From: Escherichia coli
Lineage (GTDB): Bacteria > Pseudomonadota > Gammaproteobacteria > Enterobacterales > Enterobacteriaceae
Length of the DNA stretch: 64,000 bases
Assembly (NCBI RefSeq): GCF_003018115.1
Contig: NZ_CP027457.1
Direction: 5' to 3' (one strand)
The notes under the pieces were generated by a model. It searched no databases, was not told the origin of the DNA, and saw nothing but the letters and a program-made list of their open reading frames with translations. Below are positions 857 through 58,178 of the stretch, piece by piece. Each line of letters opens with the position of its first letter. Position 1 is the stretch's first letter. Made by a program: the position numbers and the translations under genes.

Positions 857-3800
857 TCAGAAGGTCACATTCAGCGTGGCCTGACTGCTATAACCTTCAG
901 CGCTGCTGCCGTTGATGCTGTGGGCATAACCGGCCTGAACGCCCAGGGTGATATTTTCCCGGACACGGGCTTCCAGTCCGGCCTGCAGATCCAGTGAAGT
1001 GCCATTCTGTGAGGGAGAGAACGTCATCCCGCTGCCTGCGGTGGAGGTCCCCACACGCATATCACCCCGGGAGCTGAAGGTGCGGATAACGGAAGGCTGT
1101 ACCCACCAGTTCACCGGCAGTTCACGCACACTGTGTTTTGCACTGTCACGCAGGGGGGCACGGGATGAGGTGCCTTCACCAAAGGTCATATCGTTGTGGC
1201 TGCCCAGACGGAAACCGGCACGCACATGCTGTGCACTGCCATGCCCGAACTTCACATAACCGGCGTTGTCCTTACCGTCATCCAGCGAAAGCCCCTGCCA
1301 GGTGTACTGCAGCCGTGGCTCCAGCATCAGGTTGTCAGTGATACTGAAGGGCAGACCGGTTTCCAGTGAGCCCAGCCAGCCCCAGCCCCGTGCGCGGAAG
1401 TCGTTATTGCCCGATGACGCTTTCATACTGTGGCGGGTTCCCTGTGCCACAATGTCAGCCCACAGGCCGGAGGAGGTGTGTGCCAGGTTCATATATCCGC
1501 CCAGGCTGCCGGCATCATCCCGGACCGTGCCGGCGCGGGAGCCGTCATCATCCTTAACATCAACGGAAGAATGGCCTGCAGCACCATACACTCCTGTCGT
1601 CAGTGACATACCGGCGACCTCTGTTCTGAGCAGGTCACCCTCCAGACGGACGAAGCCATAGCTGCCGCTGCTTTCCGGCGTGGCCCCACGGGCAATACCG
1701 CCGTTGTTATCGTGACCGAGATGGCCGCCCTGAATGCTGAGACGGACGCTGTTATTTTCACCGTTTACACCGGTCTGATGGCTGCGGGAGCCTGCCAGAA
1801 TCCGGTCATAGTCCATTGCCTGTGTCAGCATGGAGGCGTACAGGGGGACTTCAGCACGATAACGTTCTTCACTGCGCAGATACCAGCTCTCATCACTGTC
1901 CCGGTTGAGGGTGTAGTTAAAGGCCCCGGCCTGCAGCATATTCCCCTGGACAAAAGCCCCTTCCTCCGTGGTGGCACCGTTAATGGCCTCAACCACCTGA
2001 ATACCCTTACCGGTGGTCGCCAGCCCCGTACCACTGTTGCCGGCGTTCACCAGATTCAGGATGGTTTTTCCGGTTGCCCTGCCACCGTCAATGACCAGTC
2101 TGTCAGCATTGTTCTGCGCCATATCCGGACGTACACGCAGGCTGATGGTGCCATTCTGCCCGTTCAGGTTTTTCACCTGCAGAGTTGTCGGAACGAACTT
2201 CCCTGTGCGGGCGGAGGTGAAATGAATCTGTCCGGCATGGCTGAGGTCATCCACCACCGACTGAACCGTGGCGTTATCGGGAATATTCCAGGTGGCACCA
2301 GAGGCGAGAGTGACATTCGTGGGGTCAATGGCACCGTTCAGCACTGTGCTGCCGGTCAGCTTCAGGGCCGTGCCGCGCTGAGCAATGACATCCGTGGTGA
2401 CGGTACTGTCGTTCAGCGTCAGCGTGCCTTCATTCAGGTTGACGGCTTTCTGGGTGAGTGTGGTGTTGCTGACAGTGAGTGTTCCACTTCCTGATTTTTC
2501 CACCCTGCCGTTACCGGTGAGAGAGCCTCCCTGCAGGAGTGCATCGCCTTCACGGATGGTCAGGGTATCGTTGTTCACCGTCTTCCCGGAAAGGGTAAGT
2601 ATGGCGCCGTTATTCAGCGTGGTGGTGCCCGCCAGTGTGCCGCCCCTGGCGGTGAACAGTCCGCCATTTACCGTGGTATCCGTGGCCGTATCACCGGCGT
2701 TCAGCGTGAATGAACTGCCTTTTTCCAGCATCAGGGCATCCGCCTGACCGCCTCCGATACGGAATGCCTTTCCGTCGCTCCGGGTACCACTGACAGCGGC
2801 ACCGGAATCGGCCAGCAGTACACCGCCATTTCCCATGGATACGGTGGTGGCGGTGCCACCGTTGCGGACATCCAGCGTTCCGCCATCATCCACGCGGGTA
2901 TTAGTGGCTGTGTGTCCGGTCAGCACATCCAGGCGTCCGCCATTTTCCAGTACGACATTATCAGCTTTACCCTCCACAACAGAGAATGCTCCCAGGCGGT
3001 TTATGCCGGTAACGGTTGCAGCCGTACTGGTAACCAGTGCGCCGCCCTGCTTCAGGGTGACATTCGTGGCTGTACCACCGGCGTCCACCTGCAGTCTGCC
3101 CTTCTGATTAACGGTGGTATTCCCGGCCACACCCCCGTTTTTGACAATCTGCCAGCCGTCACTGTTCACAACAGTGTCAGACGCTGTACCGCCGTTGTGC
3201 ACATACTGGTATCCCCCATTCAGCGTGGTATCCAGTGCGTGACCATGTACAGTCTGGTCGCCGCCGGCATAAACCACAGTGGTATTTGCCGTTCCTTCAG
3301 TTCTCACAATCTGGCGACCGTTTTTATTGATGGTTGTGCGTACGGCATCCCCGCGAACAAACTGCCCGGTATCACCGTTTTCTGCATCCGGTCCCCCTTC
3401 CGCCCCGGTATTAACAACGGTATCCGTTGCCACTGTACCGGGCTTGACGACCTGCCAGCCCTTATCATTAATGACGGTTCCTGTGGCTATCGCCCCCTCA
3501 TGCATCCACTGTTCGCCACCATTCAGCGTGGTGTTCACTGCCCGTCCCTGAAGGCTCTGTCCGCCTCCGGCACTGATAACCGTGTCTGAGACACTTCCAC
3601 CGGGGTTCACTCTCTGAAGACCACCACTGGTGACAGTCGTTTTGTTGGCTGTTCCGCTATCCTGTACCCATTGCCCGCCGGTATTGGCCTCATTGTCCGG
3701 CCCGTACTCCAGACCGGTACTGATGGTCATTCCGTTGACCGTACCGAAGACAATCTGGTTGTCATGATTTGTCAGTGTTCCGCCGTTCACGGTTTCTCCC

Positions 3801-3976
3801 GCCTGTACAACCGTGTCAGCAGCCAGTGCCGGGACTGACGTGACAGCAGCAAGAGACAGCGCAACCGCCACACCAGCGCGTTTTCCCCGTGAGCGGGCCA
3901 GTTCGGAGGCCACCACCAGGGTGCCCGTAATGTGATTCCATACCAGCCTGTAGCTGGTGTTCAGATGTCGTTTCAT
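857..3976 (-). CDS. flu: Antigen 43 (Ag43) self-associating autotransporter adhesin
   Basis: 1039-aa product from MKRHLNTSYRLVWNHITG (signal peptide), repetitive passenger domain, C-terminal beta-barrel ending ATLNVTF; near-identical to my recollection of Ag43. The track ORF is extended 25 codons upstream; start chosen at the Met preceded by AAGGA. Confidence 0.95.
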   Translation of the reverse strand: MKRHLNTSYRLVWNHITGTLVVASELARSRGKRAGVAVALSLAAVTSVPALAADTVVQAGETVNGGTLTNHDNQIVFGTVNGMTISTGLEYGPDNEANTGGQWVQDSGTANKTTVTSGGLQRVNPGGSVSDTVISAGGGQSLQGRAVNTTLNGGEQWMHEGAIATGTVINDKGWQVVKPGTVATDTVVNTGAEGGPDAENGDTGQFVRGDAVRTTINKNGRQIVRTEGTANTTVVYAGGDQTVHGHALDTTLNGGYQYVHNGGTASDTVVNSDGWQIVKNGGVAGNTTVNQKGRLQVDAGGTATNVTLKQGGALVTSTAATVTGINRLGAFSVVEGKADNVVLENGGRLDVLTGHTATNTRVDDGGTLDVRNGGTATTVSMGNGGVLLADSGAAVSGTRSDGKAFRIGGGQADALMLEKGSSFTLNAGDTATDTTVNGGLFTARGGTLAGTTTLNNGAILTLSGKTVNNDTLTIREGDALLQGGSLTGNGRVEKSGSGTLTVSNTTLTQKAVNLNEGTLTLNDSTVTTDVIAQRGTALKLTGSTVLNGAIDPTNVTLASGATWNIPDNATVQSVVDDLSHAGQIHFTSARTGKFVPTTLQVKNLNGQNGTISLRVRPDMAQNNADRLVIDGGRATGKTILNLVNAGNSGTGLATTGKGIQVVEAINGATTEEGAFVQGNMLQAGAFNYTLNRDSDESWYLRSEERYRAEVPLYASMLTQAMDYDRILAGSRSHQTGVNGENNSVRLSIQGGHLGHDNNGGIARGATPESSGSYGFVRLEGDLLRTEVAGMSLTTGVYGAAGHSSVDVKDDDGSRAGTVRDDAGSLGGYMNLAHTSSGLWADIVAQGTRHSMKASSGNNDFRARGWGWLGSLETGLPFSITDNLMLEPRLQYTWQGLSLDDGKDNAGYVKFGHGSAQHVRAGFRLGSHNDMTFGEGTSSRAPLRDSAKHSVRELPVNWWVQPSVIRTFSSRGDMRVGTSTAGSGMTFSPSQNGTSLDLQAGLEARVRENITLGVQAGYAHSINGSSAEGYSSQATLNVTF

Positions 3977-4193
3977 CAGCTTTTCCTTACAGAGGGTGAA
4001 TAAAAAAGCCGGTACCCACAAATGTGGATACCGGCAGGTACAAAACAGCATGGTCAGATAAAGTGGTTTTTCCCGGACATAAATGCTTCCCCTCTCTCAT
4101 CCGCCAGAGAAGTATCAGTCCGTTGTGTGCAATTCCGTTCTGCATGATGAAGAGATTCAGCTGCCTTTTCGCAGGCCATTAACCACCATAAAC

Positions 4194-4229
4194 GATCGAT
4201 AGTAACGATCGATACCTGTTTTATCGATC
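4194..4229 (-). promoter_or_regulatory. agn43 phase-variation switch: three Dam GATC sites in the OxyR-binding region
   Basis: GATC at 4194-4197, 4207-4210 and 4226-4229 inside ATAG/CTAT-rich sequence, about 220-250 bp upstream of the flu start codon. Confidence 0.8.
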
Positions 4230-4348
4230 GTTTTATTCTATTGATAGCAGAGCGGTCACGCAAGAGAAACAGGAGGGGCATGAGGTGTTTGTATCATGTT
4301 TTCAGTTGGTTAACGCAATGTAATCAGGCATTTCCCCTGGCAGACTGT

Positions 4349-5221
4349 TCAGAAGAAAATCCAGTTCCATACCGCGCGGGCAACAGAGACCACCGAGTCA
4401 CGGACGGCACGCAGAACCGTGCGTGCAACAGAGGCAATACAGACGCTCTCCGCCGTGTCAAATATCCGGTCCACCGCACCGGTAAACTGTTCACGGGCCT
4501 GAGACCGGACAGATTCCGTGCGCAGCTCGTCCTGCAGGCGGGTCATCAGGGGGCTGGCGGCATGGTCGGGAAGCGCTGTCATGAGCGCACTGACCAGCGT
4601 ATCCAGTTCCCAGCCGGTGCGGGCCGATACGGCAACAACCGGATGTACGGGCCGGAACAGACGGAATACCGCCTCCGTTTTTTCGCGAATGTTCTGTGCC
4701 TGTGCGGGAGAAGGCTGAATGCCGGCCATATCCCATTCATGGCAGGGCTCCGTTTTGTCGGCCTGCGTCACCACAAACAGCACCTGCTGATGCCCCCGGT
4801 GCAGAATGTGTCGCCAGAAATACTCATCCACAGACAGGGCCCGGTCATCGGCTTTAATCAGCCACAGTACCAGGTCCAGTTCAGACAGAATGTTACGGTA
4901 CAGGGCTTCATACTCTGCATCCCTGTCACGGCTCTCGCCCACCCCGGGCAGGTCAGTGATAACCATGCTGTGACCGTGACCACTCAGACGGAAGCGCTGC
5001 ACTTCCCGGGTGCCGGCGTGAACATCACTGACCGGGGTGACCTCCCCCTGAAACAGTGCATTACAGAGTGAGGATTTACCGGCCCCGCTTTTCCCCATAA
5101 TGCCAATCACGGGTTCGTGACTGGTGAGTTTGCGCAGATGTTCCAGGATGTGACGGGAAAGTGAGTAAGGCAGGGAAGAAAGTGGTTTTTCAATTGCCTC
5201 AATGGCATCAGACGGATTCAT
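4349..5221 (-). CDS. yeeP: YeeP/YkfA-family GTPase (intact)
   Basis: P-loop GIMGKSGAGKSS and family-typical DLPGVGES; start set at MNPSD rather than the track's upstream extension; positioned upstream of flu as in CP4-44. Confidence 0.85.
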   Translation of the reverse strand: MNPSDAIEAIEKPLSSLPYSLSRHILEHLRKLTSHEPVIGIMGKSGAGKSSLCNALFQGEVTPVSDVHAGTREVQRFRLSGHGHSMVITDLPGVGESRDRDAEYEALYRNILSELDLVLWLIKADDRALSVDEYFWRHILHRGHQQVLFVVTQADKTEPCHEWDMAGIQPSPAQAQNIREKTEAVFRLFRPVHPVVAVSARTGWELDTLVSALMTALPDHAASPLMTRLQDELRTESVRSQAREQFTGAVDRIFDTAESVCIASVARTVLRAVRDSVVSVARAVWNWIFF

Positions 5222-5384
5222 ACATGTATTCCCGGTGAAAAAAGACAAAACCCCGCGCACCGGAAAGATGGCGGGGGATTCACGGAGATAATATCTGTCT
5301 GAAATTATTTGAAATGCAGGTATATGCAGCTAATTTGTATCAGCTTATTGGTACAGTACTAAACCTCATCTGACAGTCCGCTCT

Positions 5385-5502: not shown

Positions 5503-6219
5503 TCAGTCCTTAAGTTTATTCATAGAAAGCCGCTCTTGGCGTTTAAGCTCATTTAAAGTGAAAAAAGCACATTTATTAGATAAAATATAAATAGTTCCTA
5601 CTAACCGATGTAAGCGCCTCATTTTTTCGGGCATAGAGAATTCAGCATTTTTGACAAACATTAAAGAATCAACCCCAGCAGAGAACATATATTGTAAACT
5701 TTCCATATTAAAAGCCTCTAGTGGATTTACTTCGTTAATATCAATACTATTAACAGACCTCTCTATTTCGAGGTAATCTTCACTTGTCATTGAATAGTCT
5801 ATTTTATGAGCGAATTTATTGCGGATAGAATTCAGCTTAACTAAAGAATTTGCAATTGAGAGAGGTAAACCTAAAGCAACACAGATCTCCAGTTTTGGAG
5901 TAAAATATCGTGATGGTTTAACGAACTGCTCAGTACCAGGCTTCCTAACATTGTTGATGAATACTTCCAAGAAATTCTCAATCAATAGGCTAAGTCTTAG
6001 CAAGACTGATGCTTCGTCATTTATACTTAGTAAAGGTGCAAATTTTTCTGCGTCAAGAAAGAAACCGAGGTCATTATTAATCGCTACATATCCAGTTAGA
6101 TTGTTATTTGACTTCATATTCATAAAAACCTTATCTTGTATATTAGCGGCATATTGTACCATAAATTGAATCGTGGTTTGTTCTAAGAATGGACACAAGA
6201 ACTTCCTCTCCTCACTCAT
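5503..6219 (-). CDS. hypothetical protein with a HEPN-like R-N-x-x-A-H motif (possible Abi-type RNase)
   Basis: AT-rich ORF; motif SIRNKFAH matches the HEPN Rx4-6H signature in its common RNxxAH form. Start uncertain: track starts at TTG 6228, ATG at 6219 (MSEER), or ATG at 6123 (MNMKS, preceded by AAGG). Confidence 0.5.
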   Translation of the reverse strand: MSEERKFLCPFLEQTTIQFMVQYAANIQDKVFMNMKSNNNLTGYVAINNDLGFFLDAEKFAPLLSINDEASVLLRLSLLIENFLEVFINNVRKPGTEQFVKPSRYFTPKLEICVALGLPLSIANSLVKLNSIRNKFAHKIDYSMTSEDYLEIERSVNSIDINEVNPLEAFNMESLQYMFSAGVDSLMFVKNAEFSMPEKMRRLHRLVGTIYILSNKCAFFTLNELKRQERLSMNKLKD

Positions 6220-6265
6220 AAGAGACAACCATACTCAAATCTCCCACATTGCAGGAGATTTGAGT

Positions 6266-6868
6266 ATGAACACGTCACCGTGGAACAAAGACCGTATCAT
6301 CGCCCAAAAAAGACCACTTCAGATATCTCATATCTGGGAGATCCGAATCCGGCTTGAACTGGAAGGTAAAACGCGCGATTTAGCTCTGTTCAATATGGCC
6401 CAGGACAGTAAGCTTCGAGGCTGTGATCTGGTCAAACTCAAAGTATCGAATGTGGCATATGGTAGCTCGGTTTCAAGCAGAGAAACGGTGTTGCAACAAA
6501 AAACCGGTAACCTTGTGCAATTCGAGATAACCAAAGGGACAAGAGAAGCTGTTGCTGCATTGATAAAGCTTGGCAATTTGCACAGTAAAGACTTCTTGTT
6601 TCGGTCTCGGGTCGGAACTAATCGGCACATATCAACCCAGCAATACAGCCGAATTTTTCATGGGTGGGTAGAAAAGCTTGGTCTCGAAGCTTCGCTGTAC
6701 AGCACACAATCCATGAGAAGAACAAAACCTTACCTAATCTACAAGAAAACCAAGAATCTCCGGATCATCCAACTTCTGTTGGGTCATAAGAAACTGGAAA
6801 GCACGATCCGTTATCTGGGCATTGAAGTCGATGATGCGTTAGAGACCTCTGAATCGATTGAAGTCTAA
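6266..6868 (+). CDS. short (~200 aa) tyrosine recombinase, catalytic domain only (FimB/FimE-sized)
   Basis: C-terminal LLGHKKLESTIRYLGIE (His...Tyr box), upstream Arg and HSMRRT boxes; start at ATG 6266 preceded by AGGAG at 6254-6258. Confidence 0.7.
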   Translation: MNTSPWNKDRIIAQKRPLQISHIWEIRIRLELEGKTRDLALFNMAQDSKLRGCDLVKLKVSNVAYGSSVSSRETVLQQKTGNLVQFEITKGTREAVAALIKLGNLHSKDFLFRSRVGTNRHISTQQYSRIFHGWVEKLGLEASLYSTQSMRRTKPYLIYKKTKNLRIIQLLLGHKKLESTIRYLGIEVDDALETSESIEV

Positions 6869-6895
6869 GGTTGTCAGAGCTGCAATAGCAGCCCC

Positions 6896-6910
6896 GTGCC
6901 AGGAGCGGAC
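6896..6910. repeat. 15-bp direct repeat copy B (GTGCCAGGAGCGGAC)
   Basis: Exact match to 5385-5399, same orientation, 28 nt past the recombinase stop codon. Confidence 0.6.
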
Positions 6911-7026
6911 CTAACTAAGTTCATACAACATTGATTATTGAAGATTAGGTCAGAAATAAATACTTTATTTTGATAATTTAGTTACGTTAGAACACCGCAA
7001 TGTACAACGTAAAAATGAGGAATAAT

Positions 7027-8388
7027 ATGACTCGGAGTGAAATAAACGTCTGGGATGAGAGAAGAGGTACCAATAGTCATCGAGTGGAGGAGATTCGATC
7101 TGAAGCTCAGCACGACCTTTCTCGATTGATTCACTCGTCTGCTTTCAGACGATTACAATCCAAAACACAGGTTCTTGGTCTGGGTGAAAGTGATTTCTAC
7201 CGCACACGACTGACTCATTCTATGGAAGTCGCACAAATCGGTTCAGGTCTTCTTGCTAAGTTGAAAATAAAATATAAAGGTAAAGAGCAAGAGCAATTTT
7301 TACCAGATAACGCTCTTATGCAGGCAGTATGTCTCGCACATGATATTGGACATCCTCCATTTGGTCACGGCGGTGAGGTAGCTCTTAACTACTGTATGCA
7401 GGATTACGGTGGTTTTGAAGGAAACGGTCAGACGCTTCGCATTCTCTCGAAACTAGATAAGTATACCTTAGAACACGGACTCGATCCTACACGCAGACTT
7501 CTGCTAGGCATACTGAAATATCCGGTTAAATACTCGGAGCTAGTGGTTACAAAAGACAGAATCCCGGTCACTATCGGATCACCAAACTGGCTCTTTAAGT
7601 CATCTGATTTTAAACCTCCAAAATGCTATCTAGATTCAGAATGCGATGTTGTAAAATTTGCTCTCTCACCATTTACTGAACAGGATCGGAGGCTTTTTAC
7701 TTCCGTTGAAGATGGTCAAACTAAATCCGATCATAAAAAAGCTTCTTATAAAGCTCTCGATACAACTATAATGGATCTTGCCGATGAAATTTCGTATTCG
7801 CTGCACGATTTGGAGGATGCTATTTCTCTCGGAATGGTGACACGAGAAATGTGGATGGAGCATTTCAGTGAACATGAAACCCTATTTACTAACTGCCATG
7901 GAAAAATATTTTCCGAAACATGCCAATCTGTAGCGGATAGCCTTTTTGGTGAAAGTTACAAGAGAAAAGAGTGCATCGGGATGCTGGTTCACCTGATGAT
8001 TACAAGCGTTGAGCTTATTACAAAGAATCCAGCATTCGAATGTGGCATGCTCAAATATAATGCGGTCCTTCCGGAAGCGGTCGAAGCACTACGGTTGAAA
8101 ATTTTCAAACTGGTCAAAAATAAAGTAATTAAGCATGAAAATGTACAGCAGCTTGAATTCAAGGGACAAAAGTTGATTGTTGAGCTCTTCGGTGTGTTGG
8201 CGAACGATCCGTGTCGGTTTCTACCTGCCTCAACGAGGGAAATTTACGAGCGGCAGACTAGCTTAGACAAGAAGGCTGGTATGCGAGTCATTTGCGACTA
8301 TGTTTCAGGGATGACTGATGACTATGCAACAAAGCTTTATGAGAAGATCCTTATTCCACGCAAAGGGTCTATTTTTGACCATCTCTAA
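7027..8388 (+). CDS. dGTP triphosphohydrolase-like HD-domain protein (candidate anti-phage dGTPase)
   Basis: HD motifs RLTHSMEV, HDIGHPPFGH, DLADEISYSLHDLEDA, YVSGMTDDYA; alignable by eye to E. coli Dgt but AT-rich and shorter (453 aa); start at ATG 7027 with GAGG six nt upstream. Confidence 0.8.
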   Translation: MTRSEINVWDERRGTNSHRVEEIRSEAQHDLSRLIHSSAFRRLQSKTQVLGLGESDFYRTRLTHSMEVAQIGSGLLAKLKIKYKGKEQEQFLPDNALMQAVCLAHDIGHPPFGHGGEVALNYCMQDYGGFEGNGQTLRILSKLDKYTLEHGLDPTRRLLLGILKYPVKYSELVVTKDRIPVTIGSPNWLFKSSDFKPPKCYLDSECDVVKFALSPFTEQDRRLFTSVEDGQTKSDHKKASYKALDTTIMDLADEISYSLHDLEDAISLGMVTREMWMEHFSEHETLFTNCHGKIFSETCQSVADSLFGESYKRKECIGMLVHLMITSVELITKNPAFECGMLKYNAVLPEAVEALRLKIFKLVKNKVIKHENVQQLEFKGQKLIVELFGVLANDPCRFLPASTREIYERQTSLDKKAGMRVICDYVSGMTDDYATKLYEKILIPRKGSIFDHL

Positions 8389-8470: not shown

Positions 8471-9414
8471 ATTCTGAATTTGTTCATGCAGAATCGGTGA
8501 ACGTTCTCATCTGAGCGTTAAACGCCAATAATCATTGATCTACACTGATCATTAATACACCTTAATACCATTAGCGTCTTACTCCGTTATGAGAACAAAC
8601 GCGAACTTCCGCTGTTCGCTCAAAGCAGACCATTCGCTCAGTTAACGCATCAGTGTCGTGCTAGAAGTAGAAGTGGTTAACAACAATGTGAGTTAATCAA
8701 CGGAGAGCAGGTCAACTCTAACCTGTATCAAAAAACAAATGTGTCATAAAGATGCCGCATGCCTTAATTTGAGTATAATTGAGACGGAAGTAGACGGTTT
8801 ATGACTAGATATTGTTGATATATAGCTATTTGAAGAGTTGTAGCGCAAGCGCATAGCCCAAACTAATAACGCTACGCCCCTTATCAAAGAGCGGCAACGA
8901 TGCACAGCTCGCACGAGACAATATTCGCACAAGAAATCAGGTTCGGAAATAACCAGCTCTGGCATGGCGGGGAGAGTATCAATGGTCAGGCTTTCGGTAA
9001 GATGCGGCGGGATGAGGTCGGCGTGGGTTACAGCAGTACAAGGTCGCCCACAGAGGGTAAGCCACAGCGTGGAATCCTCGGTTTCTATCAGGGATTCGGC
9101 GAAGCGGGCGCAGTTGTCGACCAAGACGATGAAATCCATTGTGGCATTATAAGGGAACGAACAATAGATCGAGTAAATCGCAGTCAGGGACAAGGATTGT
9201 AGTCATAGAGAAGTCTCCTGTAACGGTTTTCAGGAGGCTAATCCCGACGCCTGATTTCGCAGGCGCGGAAAGAGAGGATACTGCGACCATTAATCCGCCA
9301 CAAGTCATTTACGTACATAAATCGCGCAGTCAGATCCGACTCCCACTGTAGTTCTTGAACTTGATACCACATTTAGCTAATTTAGCTAAATTATCCAGTA
9401 TACCAGTGGTTGCC

Positions 9415-9660
9415 ATGAATATGAATGAAGATGAGATTTATCGCCATATCCGGCAGGCACTTTCCAGTGCGCCGCGTAACCAGTACACCGTCGAGCTACA
9501 CCTGCAAATGATTAAATATGCCGACGAACTGGAACACATTACGGCAAAAGCCTTTTGCGAAGGCACCGGTCTGAGCCAGAGCCTCGGTACCGAATTCAGC
9601 AAAATGCGTAACTTAACCCGTCGGTTGAAGGCCGCCGGTCTGAATACCGATCTGCTGTAA
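9415..9660 (+). CDS. small hypothetical protein immediately upstream of hsdM
   Basis: ORF 9355-9660 has protein-like composition but no convincing Shine-Dalgarno before TTG 9355 or ATG 9415/9421; ends 40 nt before hsdM. Confidence 0.3.
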   Translation: MNMNEDEIYRHIRQALSSAPRNQYTVELHLQMIKYADELEHITAKAFCEGTGLSQSLGTEFSKMRNLTRRLKAAGLNTDLL

Positions 9661-9699
9661 CCGACTTACGGCAGATTATCGCGCAAAACGAGATATTTA

Positions 9700-12138
9700 A
9701 TGGCTATCAAAAAAACCGAACTCTATTCTTCCCTGTGGGCAAGCTGCGACGAACTGCGTGGCGGGATGGACGCCAGCCAGTACAAAGACTATGTACTGAC
9801 CCTGCTGTTTATGAAGTACGTTTCCGATAAGTATAAAGGCGATCCTTACGGGATGATCGTGATACCCAAAGGAGCCAGCTTTGACGATATGGTTGCGCTG
9901 AAAAATGACAAAGAGATCGGCGACAAAATCAACAAAATCATCCACAAGCTGGCGGAAGAGAACGGCCTGAAGGGCGTCATCGACGAAGCCGACTTTAACG
10001 ACGAAGATAAGCTCGGCAAAGGCAAGGAAATGATTGACCGCCTGAGCAAGCTTGTCGGTATCTTTGAAGGGTTAGATCTCTCCAGCAACCGGGCCGAAGG
10101 CGACGATCTGTTGGGCGATGCCTATGAATATCTGATGCGTCACTTCGCAACCGAATCCGGCAAGAGTAAAGGGCAGTTTTACACTCCGGCGGAGGTGTCA
10201 CGTATTCTGGCGAAGGTGATTGGTATTACTCCCGATACGCCGCGAGATGCAACGGTTTATGACCCAACCTGTGGCTCTGGTTCGCTGCTGTTGAAAGTGA
10301 ATGATGAAGCCCGGCGCGGACTATCGATTTTCGGCCAGGAGATGGATAACGCTACCAGTGCACTGGCGCGGATGAACATGATTCTGCATAACAATGCCAC
10401 CGCGAAAATCTGGCAGGGTAATACGCTGAGCGATCCGCAGTGGAAAGAGGCGAACGGCAAACTGAAAGCCTTCGATTTTGCCGTGGCGAACCCGCCTTTT
10501 TCCAATAAAAACTGGACCAACGGGTTGACGCCGAAAAAAGATCCGTTTGAACGCTTCGGCTGGGGCATTCCGCCGGAGAAAAACGGCGATTATGCTTTTT
10601 TGCTGCATATCATTAAAAGCCTGAAAAGTACCGGCAAAGGCGCGGTGATCCTGCCCCATGGCGTACTGTTTCGCGGTAACGCCGAGGCAAATATCCGTGA
10701 AAATCTAATCAAGCAGGGCTATATCAAAGGCGTTATTGGTTTGCCGGCCAACCTGTTTTACGGCACCGGCATCCCGGCGTGCATTATTGTGATTGATAAA
10801 GAGCACGCCCACAGCCGCAAAGGCATTTTTATGATCGACGCCAGTCGGGGCTTTATCAAAGATGGCAACAAGAACCGCCTGCGTAGCCGAGATATTCACC
10901 GCATTGTGGACGTGTTCAACCATCAGCGAACGGTGCCGGGCTACAGCCGGATGGTGCCCTCCAGCGAGATCGCCGGAAATGATTACAACCTGAATATTCC
11001 TCGCTATATCGAGAGCGGCGAGCCGGAAGATTTGCACGATCTGACCGCGCACTTACAGGGCGGTATTCCAGCACGCGATGTGGATGCTTTGCAGGATTAC
11101 TGGCGGGTATTCCCTGCCCTGCGCAACGTGCTGTTTGCTGACGACCGTTCCGGTTACTGTCGGGCGCAGGTGAACGCGCAGCAGGTGAAACCAACCATTC
11201 TGGCACATCAGGAGTTTAAGGATTTTGCCACCCGCAGCCTGCTACCGTTTAAAGCGTGGGTGAAAGAGGCAAGTCTGGAAGAGATTCGCAAAGGTGATAA
11301 ACCCAAAGCGCTGATCCACGATATCAGCGAGATGTTGCTTGTGCAGTACGCCAACAGTGAGTTGCTGAACAAGTACAGCGTGTACCAGATCCTGATGGAT
11401 TACTGGGCTGATGTCATGCAGGACGATGTGTATGTGATTATGCAGGATGGCTGGCAAGCCGCCGCGCAAATCCGCGAGCTTCAACCGGTGAAAGGCAAAG
11501 ATGGCAAAAACATCTGGAAAGAAACGCACGATTTCGAGTTTACCAAACAGCGCTACAAGGCCGATGTGCTACCCCGTTCACTAGTGGAAATTCGCTGCTT
11601 CCCGGAACTGCTGGATACGTTGAACCGCGCGCAGGAGCGCAGTGAAGAAGCCAGTCGTCAGCTAGCGGAACTCATCGAGGAGCAGGCAGGGGAAGAGGAT
11701 CTGCTGGCTGAGGCGAAGAACGATAAAGATAAGGTGACGCAAAAGCTGGTGAATGCCCGTCTGGCACAGTTGAAGAAAACCCCTGCCGACCCAGATGAGC
11801 TGGCAGTGCTGAACCGCTGTCTGGCGCTGATTAAGGCCGAGGCCAGTGCGAAAAAAGCGCTGAAAGCCGCACAGGAAGCGTTGGATCGAGCGGTATTTAA
11901 ACATTATCCCACGCTGGATGAAACAGCGATTAAAACGCTGGTAGTGCAGGATAAGTGGCTGGCAACGTTGCAGGCAGGAATCAAGGCGGAGATTGAGCGT
12001 ATTACCCAGCAACTGGCGTCGCGCGTAAAGGAGCTGGAAGAGCGTTATGCTGAACCGTTGCCAGCGCTTGAAGCCTCCGTTGAGGCGTTGAGCGAGAAAG
12101 TGGCCGGGCATTTGCGGGCGATGGGGCTGGAGTGGTGA
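9700..12138 (+). CDS. hsdM: type I restriction-modification N6-adenine DNA methyltransferase subunit, long form (812 aa)
   Basis: N-terminal HsdM signature LWASCDELRGGMDASQYKDYVLTLLFMKYVSD, AdoMet motif DPTCGSGSLL, catalytic NPPF; about 300-aa C-terminal extension rich in charged/coiled-coil-like residues. Confidence 0.95.
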   Translation: MAIKKTELYSSLWASCDELRGGMDASQYKDYVLTLLFMKYVSDKYKGDPYGMIVIPKGASFDDMVALKNDKEIGDKINKIIHKLAEENGLKGVIDEADFNDEDKLGKGKEMIDRLSKLVGIFEGLDLSSNRAEGDDLLGDAYEYLMRHFATESGKSKGQFYTPAEVSRILAKVIGITPDTPRDATVYDPTCGSGSLLLKVNDEARRGLSIFGQEMDNATSALARMNMILHNNATAKIWQGNTLSDPQWKEANGKLKAFDFAVANPPFSNKNWTNGLTPKKDPFERFGWGIPPEKNGDYAFLLHIIKSLKSTGKGAVILPHGVLFRGNAEANIRENLIKQGYIKGVIGLPANLFYGTGIPACIIVIDKEHAHSRKGIFMIDASRGFIKDGNKNRLRSRDIHRIVDVFNHQRTVPGYSRMVPSSEIAGNDYNLNIPRYIESGEPEDLHDLTAHLQGGIPARDVDALQDYWRVFPALRNVLFADDRSGYCRAQVNAQQVKPTILAHQEFKDFATRSLLPFKAWVKEASLEEIRKGDKPKALIHDISEMLLVQYANSELLNKYSVYQILMDYWADVMQDDVYVIMQDGWQAAAQIRELQPVKGKDGKNIWKETHDFEFTKQRYKADVLPRSLVEIRCFPELLDTLNRAQERSEEASRQLAELIEEQAGEEDLLAEAKNDKDKVTQKLVNARLAQLKKTPADPDELAVLNRCLALIKAEASAKKALKAAQEALDRAVFKHYPTLDETAIKTLVVQDKWLATLQAGIKAEIERITQQLASRVKELEERYAEPLPALEASVEALSEKVAGHLRAMGLEW

Positions 12139-13445
12139 TGGTGGATTTAATGGTGAATGAGCAACGATCAGGTACGGCGGGGAAAGATGTGCCTGCGGGG
12201 TATAAGCTGACTGAGGTGGGGGTGATTCCTGAGGATTGGGTAGTAATCTCTATTGATGACTGTACAACCAAAGTTGGTAGTGGAAAAACACCAACTGGTG
12301 GAGCATCTGTTTATATTGATAGCGGACGCCCTTTTGTCCGTAGCCAAAATGTTGATTGGGGAAGATTAGATCTCGCCGATGTCGTACATATTACAGATGA
12401 AACCCATAACACATTCTCTGGTTCTGAAATTCAGCAAGATGATGTTTTACTCAACATAACGGGAGCATCTATCGGCCGATGCGCTAAAGCTGATTTTAGG
12501 GTTATAGGTGGTAATGTTAACCAACATGTTTGCATCATCAGAACAGAGGCAAAAAAACTCTCCCCATCCTTACTGGTTGAATTAATCAATTCAAATTATG
12601 GACAAAACCAGATTGATAGTTATCAAGCCGGAGGAAACAGAGAAGGACTGAATTTTTCTCAAGTTAAAAATCTTAAGTTTGCTATTACACCAAACTCCCT
12701 TGAACAAACGGAAATTGTCAGAACATTAAATGATATTAATGCATTCACTCTCGCTCTGGAAAACTTAATTGCTAAAAAACAGGCCATAAAAGCCGCTGCT
12801 ATGCAACAACTACTCACCGGTAAAACCCGTTTGCCGCAGTTTGCGTTGCGCAAAGATGGATCTGCTAAGAGATATAAAAAGAGCAAGTTGGGGGAGACTC
12901 CAGAAGATTGGGCAGTTAATAATATTGGAGATTTATTCTCCATTACCGCAGGAGGAGATTTAAGACAGTCTGAATTCTCTAATATTCAATCTGAAAAACA
13001 TCTTTACCCTATTTATTCCAATGCAATTAGTCATTATGGTTTATATGGCTATTGCCAGAGTTATGATTATGTTGGTGACTATCTAACAATCACTGCGAGG
13101 GGAGGAATCGGCCATGCCGTGGCAAGAAAAGGAAGATTCTGTGCAATTGGACGATTATTAGTTCTTAGTCCAAAAGGAGATTCAAACGTAAAATTTTATG
13201 AAGGGTATATAAACCAATACTTATCATTTGCAAATGAGAGCACTGGAGTCCCTCAACTTACAGCTCCTCAAGTTGCAAAATATCCGGTTGTTTCCCCATG
13301 CATTGAAGAACAAACCGCCATCGCCACCATCCTCTCCGATATGGACAAGGAAATTCAGACCCTGCAACAACGTCTGGACAAAACCCGTCAGCTTAAACAG
13401 GGGATGATGCAGGAGCTGTTAACCGGGAAAACACGCTTAATATAA
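12138..13445 (+). CDS. hsdS: type I restriction-modification specificity subunit with two target-recognition domains
   Basis: Two AT-rich variable blocks separated and followed by conserved LTGKTRL repeats ([13 protein letters not shown] and [11 protein letters not shown]); ATG at 12138 overlaps the hsdM TGA (TGATG). Confidence 0.9.
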
Positions 13446-13456
13446 AAGGGAAACCT

Positions 13457-14107
13457 ATGACTACAGCGCCAGCCTCAATCCGCAAAAAGCCCTGATCTGG
13501 CGTATCGTCCATCGGGACAATATCCCGTGGATTCTGGACAATGGTCTGCACTGCGGCAACAGCCCGGTGCAGGCTGCTAACTGGATCAATATCGGCAACC
13601 CGGAGCTTATCGGCAAGCACGCCGGACATCCGGTACCTGTCGGGACGGGCGGGACACTGCGTGACTATGTGCCATTTTATTTTACCCCCTTCTCGCCAAT
13701 GCTGATGAACATCCACAGCGGACGTGGCGGCATTAAGCAACGCCCCAATGAAGAGATCGTTATTCTGGTCAGCAGCCTGCGGCACGTGGCAGCACACGAC
13801 GTGCCCTTCGTGTTTACCGACAGCCATGCTTACTATAACTGGACCAACTACTACACCAGTCTGGATAGTCTGGACCAGATCGACTGGCCCATTTTGCAGG
13901 CACGGGACTTTCGCCGCGATCCAGACGATCCGGCTAAATTTGAACGCTATCAGGCAGAGGCGCTAATCTGGCAACACTGCCCGATCTCGCTGCTGGATGG
14001 GATAATTTGTTACAGCGAAGAGGTCAGGTTACAATTAGAACAATGGTTGTTTCAGCGTAATCTAACAATGTCCGTTCACACACGGGCTGGATTGGTACTT
14101 CTCATGA
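13457..14107 (+). pseudogene. darT: DarT-like (DUF4433) DNA ADP-ribosyltransferase gene, reading frame disrupted as read
   Basis: ATG 13457 with AAGGG upstream opens a frame that stops after 12 codons; DarT-like sequence ([46 protein letters not shown]) continues in the -1 frame from about 13459 to 14103; the original frame resumes for the last codons before a TGA that overlaps the darG ATG (ATGA at 14104-14107). Confidence 0.55.
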
Positions 14108-15171
14108 TCACATATACACAAGGCAATTTACTGGACGCACCGGTGGAAGCTCTGGTGAATACGGTTAATACCGTCGGTGTCATGGGGAAAGGCATCGCGT
14201 TGATGTTTAAAGAGCGCTTCCACGAAAATATGAAAGCCTATGCCCTCGCCTGCAAACAAAAGCAGGTGATCACCGGCAAAATGTTCATTACCGAAACCGG
14301 GGAACTGATGGGACCGCGCTGGATTGTTAATTTTCCGACCAAACAGCACTGGCGCGCTGACTCCCGCATGGGGTGGATTGAAGATGGCTTACAAGACTTA
14401 CGTCGATTTTTGATTGAAGAGAACGTGCAATCCATCGCCATTCCACCGCTGGGCGCAGGCAACGGTGACTTGAACTGGCCGGACGTTCGGGCGCAGATTG
14501 AATCTGCCCTTGGCGACCTTCAGGACGTTGATATCCTGATTTACCAACCAACTGAAAAATACCAGAACGTTGCCAAAAGCACTGGCGTAAAAAAGCTCAC
14601 TCCCGCCAGAGCCGCCATCGCTGAACTGGTGCGTCGCTACTGGGTATTGGGGATGGAGTGCAGCCTACTGGAAATCCAGAAACTGGCCTGGCTGTTACAA
14701 CGCGCCCTTAAGCAGCATCAACAGGACGATATCCTCAAACTGCGGTTTGAAGCTCACTATTATGGCCCCTATGCGCCCAATCTGAACCATCTGCTTAATG
14801 CGCTGGACGGCACCTATCTTAAAGCCGAGAAACGCATCCCGGACAGCCAACCGCTGGATGTGATCTGGTTTAACGATCAGAAAAAAGAACACGTTAATGC
14901 GTATCTGAACAGCGAAGCCAGAGAGTGGCTACCGGCGCTGGAGCAGGTCAGCCAGTTAATTGACGGCTTTGAATCGCCGTTTGGTCTGGAGCTGCTGGCA
15001 ACCGTAGACTGGTTGCTGAGCCGTGGCGAATGTCAACCAACACTGGATTCCGTTAAGGAAGGGCTGCACCAGTGGCCTGCGGGCGAACACTGGGCCAGCC
15101 GTAAGTTGAGGCTGTTTGATAATAATAATCTGCAATTTGCCATTAACCGCGTAATGGAGTTCCATTGCTGA
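14104..15171 (+). CDS. darG: DarG-like macrodomain protein (predicted antitoxin / ADP-ribosyl hydrolase)
   Basis: [39 protein letters not shown] with IPPLGAGNG is a macrodomain signature matching my recollection of DarG; as read it is fused in frame to the upstream DarT-like region (track ORF 13567-15171). Confidence 0.7.
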
Positions 15172-15189
15172 GGGTTTAAGGAGCGCCTT

Positions 15190-18100
15190 TTGAGTACCGT
15201 GGGCCAGCGCGAACGCGCCACACAGCAGCGTCTGATTCAGTTTTTTGTTGAAGATTTAGGTTACCGCCATCTGAGTCACCGCACCGGGTACACCGGGAAC
15301 AGCAACATCGACACTAATATACTGAGCGCGTGGCTAAAACGGCGCGGCGTTAATGATACGTTGATCACCCGGGCGTTGCGGCAACTGGATTCCGCCGCCG
15401 CTCTGGGCGAAGGCAAAAAACTCTATTACGCCAATAAAGAGGTCTATCGCCTGCTACGTTACGGCGTGAAAGACAAAGAAGGCGCAGGCGAGCAGAACCA
15501 AACCGTGTGGCTGATTGACTGGGCCAACCCACAAGCCAATGATTTCGCCATCGCCGATGAGGTGACGGTCAAAGGCGAGTACTGCAAGCGCCCGGATCTG
15601 GTGCTGTACGTTAACGGCATTGCGCTGGGCGTGATTGAACTTAAGCGTTCGTCAGTGCACGTCAGCGAAGGCATCCGGCAGAATCTCGATAATCAAAAGA
15701 AAACCTTTATCCGCGATTTCTTCACCACTATGCAGTTAGTGATGGCGGGCAACGATACGCAGGGCCTGCGCTACGGCACCATCGAAACCCCGGAAAAATA
15801 CTATCTGGAGTGGAAAGAAGATAATCCAGGCGACTATACACATAAACTCGACTTTCATTTAAGTCGTCTGTGTAGCAAATCCAGGCTGTTGGATATCGTC
15901 CATAATTACATTGCCTTTGATGTCGGAGTGAAAAAACTCTGCCGCCATAATCAGTTCTTCGGCGTCGAGGCGGCTAAACAACATATTGCCCGTCGTGAAG
16001 GCGGTATTATCTGGCACACACAGGGATCGGGTAAAAGCCTGACGATGGTCTGGCTGGCGAAGTGGATCCGTGAAAATGTGCCAAACTCCCGCGTGTTGAT
16101 TGTGACTGACCGCACCGAACTGGATGAACAGATCGAAAGCGTGTTTATGGGCGTGAATGAAGATATTTATCGCACCTCCAGCGGCAACGATCTTATCGCA
16201 ACGCTCAATCATCCTAACCCGTGGCTCATTTGCTCGCTGGTGCATAAATTTGGTCGTCGCAGCGAAGCTGAAGACAATGCGGCTACCGACGCCTTTATCA
16301 CCGAATTACAGCAGTCCCTGACGAAAACATTCCGCGCCAAAGGCGATCTGTTTGTTTTTGTGGACGAGTGCCACCGCACACAATCCGGCAAGCTGCATAA
16401 CGCCATGACTGCCATTCTGCCGGACGCCCTGTTTATCGGTTTTACCGGCACACCGCTGATGAAGAAAGATAAGAAGAAGTCGGTTGAGGTGTTCGGCCCT
16501 TATATCCATACCTATAAATTTGATGAAGCGGTGGCCGACGGTGTGGTGCTGGATCTGCGCTACGAGGCACGCGATATTGACCAGTATCTGACATCAGAGA
16601 AAAAGGTCGATGACTGGTTTGAAGCCAAGACTCGCGGTTTGTCGAATTTAGCCAGGACCCAGCTTAAGCAAAAGTGGGGATCAATGCAGAAGCTGCTCTC
16701 CAGCAAGTCGAGGCTGGAGCAGATCGTTAACGACATTTTGCTGGATATGGATACCCGTCCACGCCTGATGGACGGGCGCGGCAACGCCATGCTGGTATGC
16801 AGCAGTATCTATCAAGCCTGCAAGGTTTACGAGATGTTCAGCCAGACCGAGCTGGCAGGAAAAGTAGCGATTGTGACCAGCTATCGCCCCGATGCCGCCA
16901 GCATCAAAGGCGAAGAAACGGGCGAAGGGTTAACGGAGAAACTCTCTAAACACGCCACCTATCGTAAAATGTTGGCTGACTATTTTGAACAAAGTGAAGA
17001 GAAGGCCGCCGCACGCATTACCGAGTTCGAGCGGGAAGTGAAACAGCGTTTTATTGAAGAGCCGGGGCAAATGCGCCTGCTTATCGTGGTGGATAAGCTG
17101 CTGACTGGCTTTGACGCGCCGTCCGCCACCTATCTCTACATTGATAAAACCATGACCGACCATACGCTGTTTCAGGCGATTTGTCGGGTGAACCGGCTGG
17201 ACGGTGAGGATAAAGAGTATGGCTATATTATCGATTATAAAGATCTGTTCCGTTCGCTGGATAAAGCGATTACCGATTACACCACGGGCGCGTTTGATGA
17301 TTACGATCGGGACGATGTGGCCGGGTTGCTGAAAGACAGGCTGGAGCAGGCGCAACTGGATCTCGACAGCGCGCTGGAGATGGTTCGCAGCTTATGTGAA
17401 CCCGTCAAAACCCCGCGCAGCCTGCAGGACTATCAGCACTATTTTTGCGGTGAATCAGGAGAGAATCAGACTTCGTTAAACGAAAAAGAGGCGCTGCGCC
17501 TGACATTTTACCAGTGCGTCGCCCGTCTGCTACGCGCTTATGCCAGCATCGCCAATGAAATGCCGGAAGCAGGCTACACTGCCGAAGAGGTAGAGAGCAT
17601 TCGCGCCGAAGTCGCTGAATTCGAAAAACTGCGCTATGAGATTAAGCTGACCAGCGGCGATCTTCTGGATATGAAGCGCTTTGAACCCGCTATGCGTCAT
17701 TTACTGGATATGTATGTTCGCGCCGATGATAGCGAAGTGCTGATGGATTTTGAAGAGTTAAGTCTGATTGAACTGATTGTCGAGAAAGGCTTGGCGGCGA
17801 CCGTCGCCCTGCCGGATGATATCCGTAATAATCAGGATGCGATGGCGGAAACCATCGAAAACAACGTGCGCAAAACCATCGTGGATGAAAACCCGGTTAA
17901 CCCAAAATACTATGGACGCATGTCGCAGCTGCTGGATGAACTGATTACCCTTCGCCGACAAAATGCGCTCAATTATCAGCAGTATCTGGAACGTATCCGC
18001 GATTTGTGTAAACAAGTCATCCGCCCGGAGCAAACCGCCGGAGCGTGCTACCCTGCCACCATGGATACACAAGCAAAGCGCGCCTTCTATGATAACTTCG

Positions 18101-51568: not shown

Positions 51569-53431
51569 TCACGACAGCTCAGGAGGGTTATTCCTGATGT
51601 CATCTTCACAAATAATGGTTAACGCATCATATATCATTCTGCGTCTGTTCCTGTTTTCGGCCTTATCGCCATACAACATCATCACATTTTTAATTTCATC
51701 GACCGGTGATTTCACATAGTGAACTAATACACCAAGCTTCTCAACACATTGCAGTAAAGTATATTTCTTACTGCCTGTGAAAAGCCCTATCATAGTTTCT
51801 TTACGTTCGCGACTGGATAATACTTTGTTTTCCATAATGACTTCAGCCAGCGTCTTACCATCATAAACATACTCTTTATCTATCAGAATATTTATCTTAT
51901 CCAGCACCTTCTCTACGTCATCAAGCAAACCTGTAATATATGGGGGCGCAATATATGGTTTCGTACTGATCTTTTCAAGCATACAATTATACATCTTAAT
52001 AACACGCATCAGGGTAAAATTGTTCGCATCATACTGTATTTCACCCTCCTTATATACAGGTTCAATAAGTGGTATTGTTTCAATAAATGCATCCTGATAG
52101 GCTTTTACATGGTCAAGCCAATAAAACAACGAGCCATACTTTATATTTTTTCTATTTACTTTAACCTCCAGTGCTGTCCGAAGCAACGATAATGCCCCCC
52201 TGACATATCCTGAAGGTAATTCACCAAACAATCCTTTTCTTTCCATGTCATCATAATGCTGCAGCACATCATTAATTTTATTTTTCCTTATCAGACAAAT
52301 GTACACCGCAAGTGTTTCGTAGCAGCTGGTCACATGAACAGCCTCATTCTGCAACTGCCCAAAATAGCTTATAATCTTTTTCAGATATGCGTCATCACAA
52401 CCATTCTTATCATTAATATTAAATACAAGATCTTTCAGACGGGAAATATATTCCTGAGATTTATCATCAAGTGAAACACTATAACGAGACAATGTTCCTT
52501 CTGCACTGTTTTCAAACTTATAAAACATTTCCAGTAATTTTTTTGCATAAGGCGTTGTATCAAAGCTGGTAAAGTCATAAAGATATTGCGCAGCGTAACC
52601 ATACAAACCATGAATCCAGAGTCCTTCTCTCACCAACACTCTGAGATAATATGCAAGGTTTTTAAGTATCTTCGTCTTTCGTTGTATATCAAGTAAGACA
52701 CTTAATGAATAAAATGCATTATAGAATTTATCAATATTCCTGAGCACTTTCTCCAGTTCATCCTTATCCAGCTTCTTCTCCCGGTAATCCTTTTTATATT
52801 CATTTTTGATAGCCATGATATATTGTTGCATCAGGCTCTTGCTTTTCCCGTTATCCTTCCGTATAGTTCCTGTATATTTCCCCAGAGCATACAGCTTTCC
52901 ATTTTCATGAAAATCTTCCTTGTTGAATCCCAGTTCAGCCAGATATTCCCGAAGATAACGTTTAACAGCAGCTTCATCGCTTTCTGTATCAGCGTGATCA
53001 AGACAAGGGCAATACGATTTCTGTAAAAAATTATAAATATGATAATAAAAAGCAGAGTCATTCTCTGGTCTGTATGTATTATACATATCTACAACAAGAA
53101 AAATAACCCCAAAAGTGCGCAGACAATAGCTGCGAAGGAATTCAGGTTTTAGTGTGGAATGCACTGGATAAGAATTCATCATGTAATAAAAATGTTCATA
53201 TCGGGCATATATGATCCGCCGTTGCTCCTGACTGAACACCCCTTCAGCATCAATAATACGACTGATCTCATTATAACGTTGATCCCAGAATTTTTGATGC
53301 ATTTCAAAATTGGTACTCTTCCGCTTGTGTGCCGGATTCTCGCCTTCCTTAAACAACCCCAAAACAGTACAAATATCATACAACAGATTTGTAAATGTGC
53401 GCATATGCTGTGCTCTCCGGTTGGTTTGCAT
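51569..53431 (-). CDS. large AT-rich hypothetical protein (620 aa), function unknown
   Basis: Long uninterrupted ORF in AT-rich DNA between the YagK-like and AlpA genes; no catalytic or nucleotide-binding motif recognised. Confidence 0.7.
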   Translation of the reverse strand: MQTNRRAQHMRTFTNLLYDICTVLGLFKEGENPAHKRKSTNFEMHQKFWDQRYNEISRIIDAEGVFSQEQRRIIYARYEHFYYMMNSYPVHSTLKPEFLRSYCLRTFGVIFLVVDMYNTYRPENDSAFYYHIYNFLQKSYCPCLDHADTESDEAAVKRYLREYLAELGFNKEDFHENGKLYALGKYTGTIRKDNGKSKSLMQQYIMAIKNEYKKDYREKKLDKDELEKVLRNIDKFYNAFYSLSVLLDIQRKTKILKNLAYYLRVLVREGLWIHGLYGYAAQYLYDFTSFDTTPYAKKLLEMFYKFENSAEGTLSRYSVSLDDKSQEYISRLKDLVFNINDKNGCDDAYLKKIISYFGQLQNEAVHVTSCYETLAVYICLIRKNKINDVLQHYDDMERKGLFGELPSGYVRGALSLLRTALEVKVNRKNIKYGSLFYWLDHVKAYQDAFIETIPLIEPVYKEGEIQYDANNFTLMRVIKMYNCMLEKISTKPYIAPPYITGLLDDVEKVLDKINILIDKEYVYDGKTLAEVIMENKVLSSRERKETMIGLFTGSKKYTLLQCVEKLGVLVHYVKSPVDEIKNVMMLYGDKAENRNRRRMIYDALTIICEDDIRNNPPELS

Positions 53432-53504: not shown

Positions 53505-53792
53505 ATGTCAAATCAAACCGGACAGCTTTACACGCCTTCACGCATCCTGCGTATGGCTGAACTTACCCGACTGCTGGGTATATCAAGATCTACTATTTAC
53601 GTGAAAATAAATCCGGCCTCGAAATACCACGACCCTACCTTTCCCAAACCAATAAGGCTTGGTAGTGCATCCGTAGGCTGGCGGGCATCTGCCATCGATG
53701 AGTGGCTGATGTTACATACGGCACCAGCCTGGTCTGAACCTGAAAACAAACGAAAGGAACTTAATGATGACGACAAAACTATCACTCCCTGA
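53505..53792 (+). CDS. alpA: AlpA-family phage/island transcriptional regulator (P4 Vis-like)
   Basis: MAELTRLLGISRSTIY helix-turn-helix and FPKPIRLGSASVGWRASAIDEWL; start taken at MSNQTGQL. Confidence 0.8.
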   Translation: MSNQTGQLYTPSRILRMAELTRLLGISRSTIYVKINPASKYHDPTFPKPIRLGSASVGWRASAIDEWLMLHTAPAWSEPENKRKELNDDDKTITP

Positions 53793-56680: not shown

Positions 56681-56945
56681 ACGCTAATTCCTGTTACTCT
56701 GGTATGCCATCCAGTATGCCATTAGTCTCTCGCTTCACTAAGAATACATTAGATAATATCGGACAGCAAAAAGTGTAATACATTGTTTATAATGAAATTA
56801 TATAACACCCCCGGATTAAGTCAGATTTATTTCAGGCGGCCCCCCTCACCGCCATATTTAAAGAAGAGCTCGTACGAAAGTACGGGCTTTTTTTTCGTAT
56901 ATTGCACACACCGGGGGGATGAGAATCCCCGACCGGGATACTTAG

Positions 56946-57632: not shown

Positions 57633-58178
57633 AATTAATGTTCACCTATCCATGTTGATTATATTTCATTACCAATGTTACTCGCTGAAGCGTGTTACAT
57701 GCCAACAATGCAACGATCAATATATAGTTAGTATCATGTTTTGATTATTACAACCATCCCTATTTAGCCATTGCGGCTTGCCTTCCACAAAAAAACAACA
57801 ACACACAATATTAGCCAAAGAATTAATTAAGATTAACCTTACATTTATAATATTATCCCTAAAGAATAAATCAGAGGAATATATTCGGTGTTAAACAGTC
57901 AGTCAAAGTATGGCCCATTGTTGATTAAACCTCATAAGCAAAATTGGCACCAGATCTCCTGTACAGGTTGAATGGCCGAAAAAAGATAGGCAGATGCTCA
58001 TTTTTTTGGCTTCTGGAAGAAAAACTCTCCGCGCTGGCAGTATTACACTGGTCTGATGCTATGACGAAAAATGCCTGGTAAGAGTATCTAAACCAGACTC
58101 CAGTTCAGCTTATCAACACCCTCAAAGTCGCCCCCCTGAACGCTAACCTGAAGTGAAAATCTGTTGAAATAAAACAAA

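Follow-up and report, generated by a model that had tools for sequence, protein, structure and literature searches.

A full-length yeeP-type GTPase gene in a serX island of Escherichia coli and its truncated counterpart in K-12

The open reading frame treated here raises the question whether it is an intact gene of a kind that E. coli K-12 has lost, as the first-pass annotation of this DNA had proposed, and what such a gene would do in the island that carries it. The window, by which we mean the whole stretch of 64,000 nucleotides that was analysed, contains one yeeP-type copy. In our best explanation, to which we assign a probability of about 0.9, the minus-strand stretch from 5221 to 4349 is an intact and selectively maintained yeeP-type gene, belonging to the YeeP/YkfA/YfjP family of GTPases of about 290 aa, while the own copy of K-12 is a dead 3' remnant.

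4349-5221, minus strand: coding sequence of the yeeP-type GTPase, 290 aa plus stop, sense codons from 5221 to 4352

The coding sequence begins with the ATG at 5221 and ends with a final sense codon at 4352-4354 and a TGA at 4349-4351, and its 290 codons contain neither a stop nor a frameshift, in agreement with the earlier description of an uninterrupted frame. A longer frame of 303 aa was called by the program from a GTG at 5260; this start was rejected, for it lies inside a hairpin, and the ATG position is where all homologues start. In E. coli 1303 the 912 nt of 5260-4349 recur with 100% identity, in a region whose annotated CDS is WP_001069732.1, "GTPase family protein". The encoded protein has its G motifs in the canonical order from G1 to G5 and is thus a P-loop GTPase by its motifs: G1 is GKSGAGKS at residues 43-50 (coded by positions 5072-5095 of the window), G3 is DLPG at 90-93, G4 is TQAD at 152-155 and G5 is SAR at 199-201, and the Pfam family MMR_HSR1 matches with E=1e-15 and 58 bits, the cut-off being 21.9. 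Binding and hydrolysis of GTP are predicted from these motifs. Moreover, the protein is collinear over its full length with K-12 YkfA, K-12 YfjP and 23 further members of 290-291 aa, at 50-97% identity and with 80 invariant columns, including V273, R274, V277, V278, R282, W285 and F289, and it bears the C-terminal VVSVARAVW...F motif of the family. The match to the intact paralogues YkfA and YfjP runs from end to end with no internal disruption, so that the claim of a full-length YkfA/YeeP-family GTPase with an intact P-loop holds as well. Comparison with other copies gives dN/dS values of 0.09-0.29, so the frame is that of a real gene and does not stand open by chance.

In K-12 strain MG1655, yeeP is b1999 (2070786-2071211), annotated as a pseudogene inside CP4-44, with the IS2-split yoeA as its neighbour on one side and isrC/flu on the other. 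In a K-12 derivative, PGAP describes yeeP as "GTPase family protein, incomplete, missing N-terminus", 552 nt long (6661-7212 of compared locus L003). The DNA alignment between the window and K-12 is of the same kind: homology covers only 4349 to about 4901, that is to about codon 108, and further upstream the K-12 sequence is unrelated. Because homology begins only at about 4901, K-12 yeeP has lost the promoter, the leader and codons 1-107 with G1, G2 and G3, while codons 108-290 are kept at 97% amino acid and 96.9% nucleotide identity over 183 codons. Annotation, PGAP and alignment therefore agree that yeeP is a CP4-44 pseudogene in K-12, and what the alignment refines in that statement is the nature of the lesion, which, as judged from the aligned DNA, is a 5' deletion (a truncation) and not an interruption. 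With promoter, leader and the whole nucleotide-binding half gone, K-12 is unfit for the study of the full allele. The window copy is of the yeeP type, since 97% of its amino acids match the K-12 remnant across 183 aa, as compared with identities of 50% to YkfA and 52% to YfjP.

The island around the gene was placed by comparison with a near-identical genome, E. coli 2014C-4135, to which the window is 99.87% identical over its first 14.4 kb. There the genes run GTPase, Ag43, YeeR-like, IrmA, DUF905, DUF932, antirestriction, RadC, DUF987, YeeU/CbtA, DUF5983, DUF957, DUF4942, tRNA-Ser (serX) and ghrA. The far end of the island is marked in the window by a P4-type integrase and a 98-nt repeat at 56840-56937, followed by phoH-efeBOU; the same repeat has three copies in K-12, all of them adjoining serX. 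The yeeP-type gene is therefore in a serX island and not in CP4-44, as the island is flanked by phoH-efeBOU, the serX repeat and tRNA-Ser/ghrA. The window copy is near-identical to the K-12 yeeP remnant and likewise has isrC and flu downstream, but it does not lie in the CP4-44 locus next to cobUST; accordingly it is a yeeP-type allele by sequence and not the positional orthologue of the CP4-44 gene. As separate observations on this end of the window, the boundary at 56840-58170 shows the repeat, then a 228-aa ORF (56946-57632, minus strand), then phoH, and pgaABCD-dgcT-ycdU, which in K-12 lie between phoH and serX, are absent from it. The efeU gene at 62085-62924 (minus strand) is full-length here (FTR1 profile 1-283 of 284) and annotated as a pseudogene in K-12, and is thus a second gene that is intact in the window and broken in K-12.

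Downstream of the GTPase gene, two features follow on the same strand.

3995-4231, minus strand: IsrC (Rfam IS102 RNA; 74.8 bits against a gathering score of 46), including the GATC-rich Ag43 regulatory region

857-3976, minus strand: Ag43 (flu/agn43) autotransporter, known from its ORF (MKRHLN start at 3976) and from the annotation in the near-identical genome; it is the next gene downstream, as in CP4-44

K-12 also annotates isrC between yeeP and flu. A strong terminator-like hairpin at 4008-4035 (minus strand), with 12 pairs followed by TTTTTT, ends IsrC about 30 nt short of the Ag43 start codon, and it is the second promoter-proximal terminator in the row of the yeeP-type gene. The GTPase gene heads a conserved co-directional module, namely GTPase, variable cargo (here IsrC and Ag43), DUF932, antirestriction, RadC, DUF987 and CbeA/CbtA; for the window copy this head position is read from the near-identical genomes, and other family members are alike. 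In fact, in 7/7 loci from six other genera the GTPase is the first gene of the co-directional conserved module, with unrelated cargo upstream on the opposite strand.

In the window the cargo upstream on the other strand comprises an anti-phage dGTPase, a type I R-M system, DarTG and CDI loci, about which several details were noted in passing. Just upstream of yeeP is an AT-rich block at 5503-8388, with a GC content of 0.42 as compared with 0.58 in yeeP, whose genes are a 238-aa protein without assigned function (phrog_5712, with a weak HEPN_RiboL-PSP match), a short tyrosine-recombinase ORF (6173-6868, plus strand) and, at 7000-8388, the anti-phage dGTPase (PADLOC E=9e-145). A defence cluster at 9355-17300 consists of an HTH_73 protein, type I R-M hsdM (9700-12138), hsdS, DarT/DarG and hsdR; for darT, the annotation of both near-identical genomes, 1303 and 2014C-4135, gives a frameshift. 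By comparison with 2014C-4135, the region of about 19400-48300 holds cdiB/cdiA, several orphan toxin/immunity pairs and multiple IS66-family elements, one IS66 copy of 2014C-4135 being absent from the window.

The leader of the gene merits closer attention, for its arrangement recurs ahead of the relatives of the gene.

5288-5314, minus strand: sigma-70 promoter-like element, TTTCAA at 5309-5314, a 15-nt spacer and TATTAT at 5288-5293, from alignments and exact motif location

5238-5276, minus strand: leader hairpin and T-run, with the hairpin CCCCGCCAUC...GGUGcGCGGGG at 5251-5276 and the T-run at 5238-5250

L004 6962-7090 (minus strand), L005 7582-7710 and L008-L014 5872-6000: the leader in compared loci

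In the 5' region of the ATG there are thus, in order, a promoter-like element, a GC-rich hairpin, a T-run and a weak RBS, and the hairpin with its T-run resembles an intrinsic terminator, 17 nt ahead of the ATG at 5221. The same arrangement stands ahead of K-12 ykfA and yfjP and of the homologues of Serratia, Yersinia, Klebsiella, Erwinia, Citrobacter and Cronobacter. Across the YeeP-family leaders the promoter varies as TTTCAA/TTGAAA-15-TATTAT/TATCAT, and the spacer block TTCAGACAGATAT is nearly invariant. In a genomic SELEX study with RpoD holoenzyme, TTGAAA-15-TATCAT upstream of ykfA and yfjP was listed as a "constitutive promoter" (PMC3946193). A hairpin with a T-run is found at the equivalent position in 9/9 lineages, the stem sequences being different, and one of the nine leaders, that of Citrobacter, folds weakly (z = -0.33). 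RNAalifold on the MAFFT alignment of the nine leaders gave only 3 pairs, because the leader stems are not alignable in sequence, and hence the case for the hairpin draws on single-sequence folds and position and not on column-wise covariation. The Rfam scan returned no known RNA family for the leader, IsrC being its sole match. A possible second leader copy in the window, at 52934-52950, was dismissed as a chance match, having 3 mismatches, a place inside a gene of the opposite strand and no hairpin or T-run after it.

As a mechanism, transcription would start at the conserved TTTCAA-15-TATTAT promoter, and the transcript would have to pass the terminator-like hairpin ahead of the start codon. 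Since this hairpin precedes the start codon, read-through would set how far the gene, and probably the module, is expressed; the hairpin could instead be a 5' stabiliser and not a terminator. A similar layout is known from Pseudomonas aeruginosa, where AlpA-controlled promoters (alpB, PA0807) have an element in the -35/-10 spacer and then an intrinsic terminator just ahead of the first gene (PMC7969949). The same island of the window also carries a gene of this regulator family.

53505-53792, plus strand: AlpA-family regulator gene (Pfam Phage_AlpA E=1.4e-17), a candidate regulator of the leader

The leader of the yeeP-type gene has, in silico, the parts of an AlpA-type unit, namely a spacer-element promoter and then an intrinsic terminator before the first gene, and in both systems an AlpA-family gene is on the same element; the window leader, however, has no sequence similarity to the ABE (GGGACG-N5-GGTA). 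By this analogy an AlpA-family protein might bind at the leader, and read-through might depend on it. In a wider and rather unlikely form of the same idea, the leader, with its RpoD-recognised promoter, invariant spacer block, terminator hairpin and RBS, would be the gate of the whole conserved module in islands of the P4-integrase type, opened by a processive antiterminator such as the protein of 53505-53792, as AlpA does in P. aeruginosa, and the GTPase would be the first product of an inducible island programme that also includes antirestriction, RadC and CbtA/CbeA.

As for the function of the protein, no functional study of yeeP, ykfA or yfjP was found in the literature searched, nor were biochemical or genetic data on the YeeP family, apart from a persister study that names the yfjP deletion in passing. 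PHROGs and PADLOC gave no functional label either, the PHROG families being of unknown function and the PADLOC matches partial ones to the G-domain. The structural model, which is of moderate confidence only and under pLDDT 50 at residues 220-234, would give an Era/EngB-like G domain with helices on its N-terminal side and a helical hairpin on its C-terminal side. Nowhere in the protein is the hydrophobic moment higher than in the strongly amphipathic last helix (265-284), where it reaches 0.70; this helix has an arginine face and an aromatic tail, WNWIFF, and apart from the G motifs no segment is better conserved. No transmembrane segment was found. Moreover, membrane association was reported for a chromosomally tagged YfjP fusion (PMC1874593), evidence that comes from a paralogue at 52% identity to the window protein. 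From the conserved amphipathic helix, the absence of a transmembrane segment and the membrane association of YfjP, we infer a GTP switch of the peripheral-membrane type, encoded at the head of a conserved island module: the protein would act as a GTP-dependent switch, held at the inner membrane by its Arg-faced last helix ending in WNWIFF.

Other identities were considered for such a protein. One unlikely identity is that of a minimal GTPase of the dynamin-like or IRG-like kind, which would remodel or mark membranes, perhaps together with a LeoA-type dynamin cargo or as part of an Eleos-type anti-phage system. Weak PADLOC matches of the window GTPase to LeoBC and LeoA do exist, and in O104:H4 (L015 3629-5911) and EC31 (L018 3383-5665) a "dynamin family protein" follows the yeeP-type GTPase in place of Ag43. 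However, the protein has 290 aa as compared with 560-700 aa for LeoA or BDLP, its matches comprise the G domain and a few helices with stalk and paddle absent, and among the defence-library models none is matched over its length: a bacterial dynamin-like protein (LeoA/BDLP, Eleos) would be expected to have more than 550 aa, a stalk and a paddle and to match the whole model, whereas the PADLOC matches here cover model positions 52-162 of 601 and 46-277 of 559. Furthermore, the downstream partner varies (Ag43, a WYL protein, dynamin), and so there is no fixed system. Less probable still is a ribosome-associated GTPase like Era, Der or EngB, with a role in ribosome assembly or translation, to which the Pfam name "50S ribosome-binding GTPase" would point. 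With the TRAFAC GTPases Era, EngB (YsxC) and EngA (Der) the window protein indeed shares the G-domain fold and the motif order, but the matches are limited to the G domain at about residues 37-160, and all NCBIfam equivalogs score far under their cut-offs (Era 53.9 vs 237, Der 49.7 vs 306.7 and YsxC 40.4 vs 124.45 bits). It has neither a KH or other RNA-binding domain nor a second G domain, its extra N- and C-terminal helices and amphipathic C-terminus are foreign to Era and Der, the YfjP paralogue is membrane-associated, and the gene is accessory and island-borne.

A peripheral-membrane GTP switch thus being the preferred reading of the protein, it remains to consider how widely and how faithfully its gene is kept. 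Among 5426 complete E. coli genomes, 4539 match the query, with a median of two places per genome, and in 4070 a copy spans 80% of it or more. Among proteins, a single cluster at 90% identity comprises 18,190 sequences of 290 aa; homologues of 290-291 aa with about 60% identity occur across the Enterobacterales, and a profile search gave 270 clusters (50% identity) at E<=1e-30. Full length is therefore the usual state of the yeeP-type gene in E. coli, annotation of this form exists already, and for this reason the finding is unsurprising. The dN/dS of the window copy is 0.19 against the O157 copy and 0.09-0.29 against distant copies, values which indicate that the YeeP family is under purifying selection. 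At the same time, the gene is found broken in other strains as well: the EC31 copy (L018 2497-3165) is truncated by IS21, and O104:H4 (L015 2540-3411) and O22:H8 (L017 2540-3411) carry independent frameshifts at two different sites. The inactivating frameshift sites in yeeP-type genes of other strains are near CDS position 549 and at the G5 run of CDS 170-174, and in a spread sample of E. coli matches 9/35 full-coverage rows span 911 or 913 nt and not 912, that is, about a quarter of the sampled full-coverage matches have an indel. As copies are often inactivated (the K-12 5' deletion, the IS21 truncation of EC31, the frameshifts of O104:H4 and O22:H8), loss of the gene is tolerated. That the ORF is intact by recency only, being neutral cargo without current function and heading for decay as in K-12, would fit these independent inactivations, the 911- or 913-nt rows and the choice of the K-12 yeeP locus as a neutral place for integration when strains are engineered (PMC9923381), but it is the least probable of the readings considered here in view of the dN/dS, of the G motifs and C-terminal VVSVARAVW that are invariant across genera, and of a length kept at 290-291 aa along with the promoter and leader.

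To sum up, the observation of an intact gene is confirmed and its interpretation is supported, and the feature itself is already known and ordinary. A gene lost by K-12 had been correctly identified, yet this is of small weight, since thousands of genomes have the intact form annotated and it is on record from several pathogenicity islands. The YeeP family is large, is under purifying selection and is without assigned function. The conserved promoter-terminator leader is the only lead of wider interest, as it offers a testable handle on how the module is switched on in these widespread islands.

Among known systems, K-12 yeeP itself is the closest: isrC and then flu/Ag43 lie downstream in both, whereas the K-12 copy is in CP4-44 near cobU and the window copy is in a serX island adjoining phoH. 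With the K-12 paralogues YkfA (CP4-6) and YfjP (CP4-57) the protein has in common its size (287 vs 290 aa), the G motifs and the C-terminal VVSVARAVW, and the gene has in common the promoter-hairpin leader and the position at the head of the conserved module. The identity is 50-52%, however, a 4-residue HEWD segment of the window protein is missing from YkfA and YfjP, and the next gene is DUF932 (yafZ/yfjQ) in the paralogues but IsrC-Ag43 in the window. Full-length GTPases of the YeeP/NgrB type have been described in PAI II of UPEC 536, as orf46 of the Shigella SRL PAI and in the pheV, pheU and selC islands of STEC (PMC6174562, PMC6980539). Judged from these descriptions, both they and the window gene have Ag43 and yeeR/S/T/U/V adjacent and lie in tRNA-associated islands (PMC6174562, PMC6980539), while the island of the window differs from them in its integration site and its cargo.
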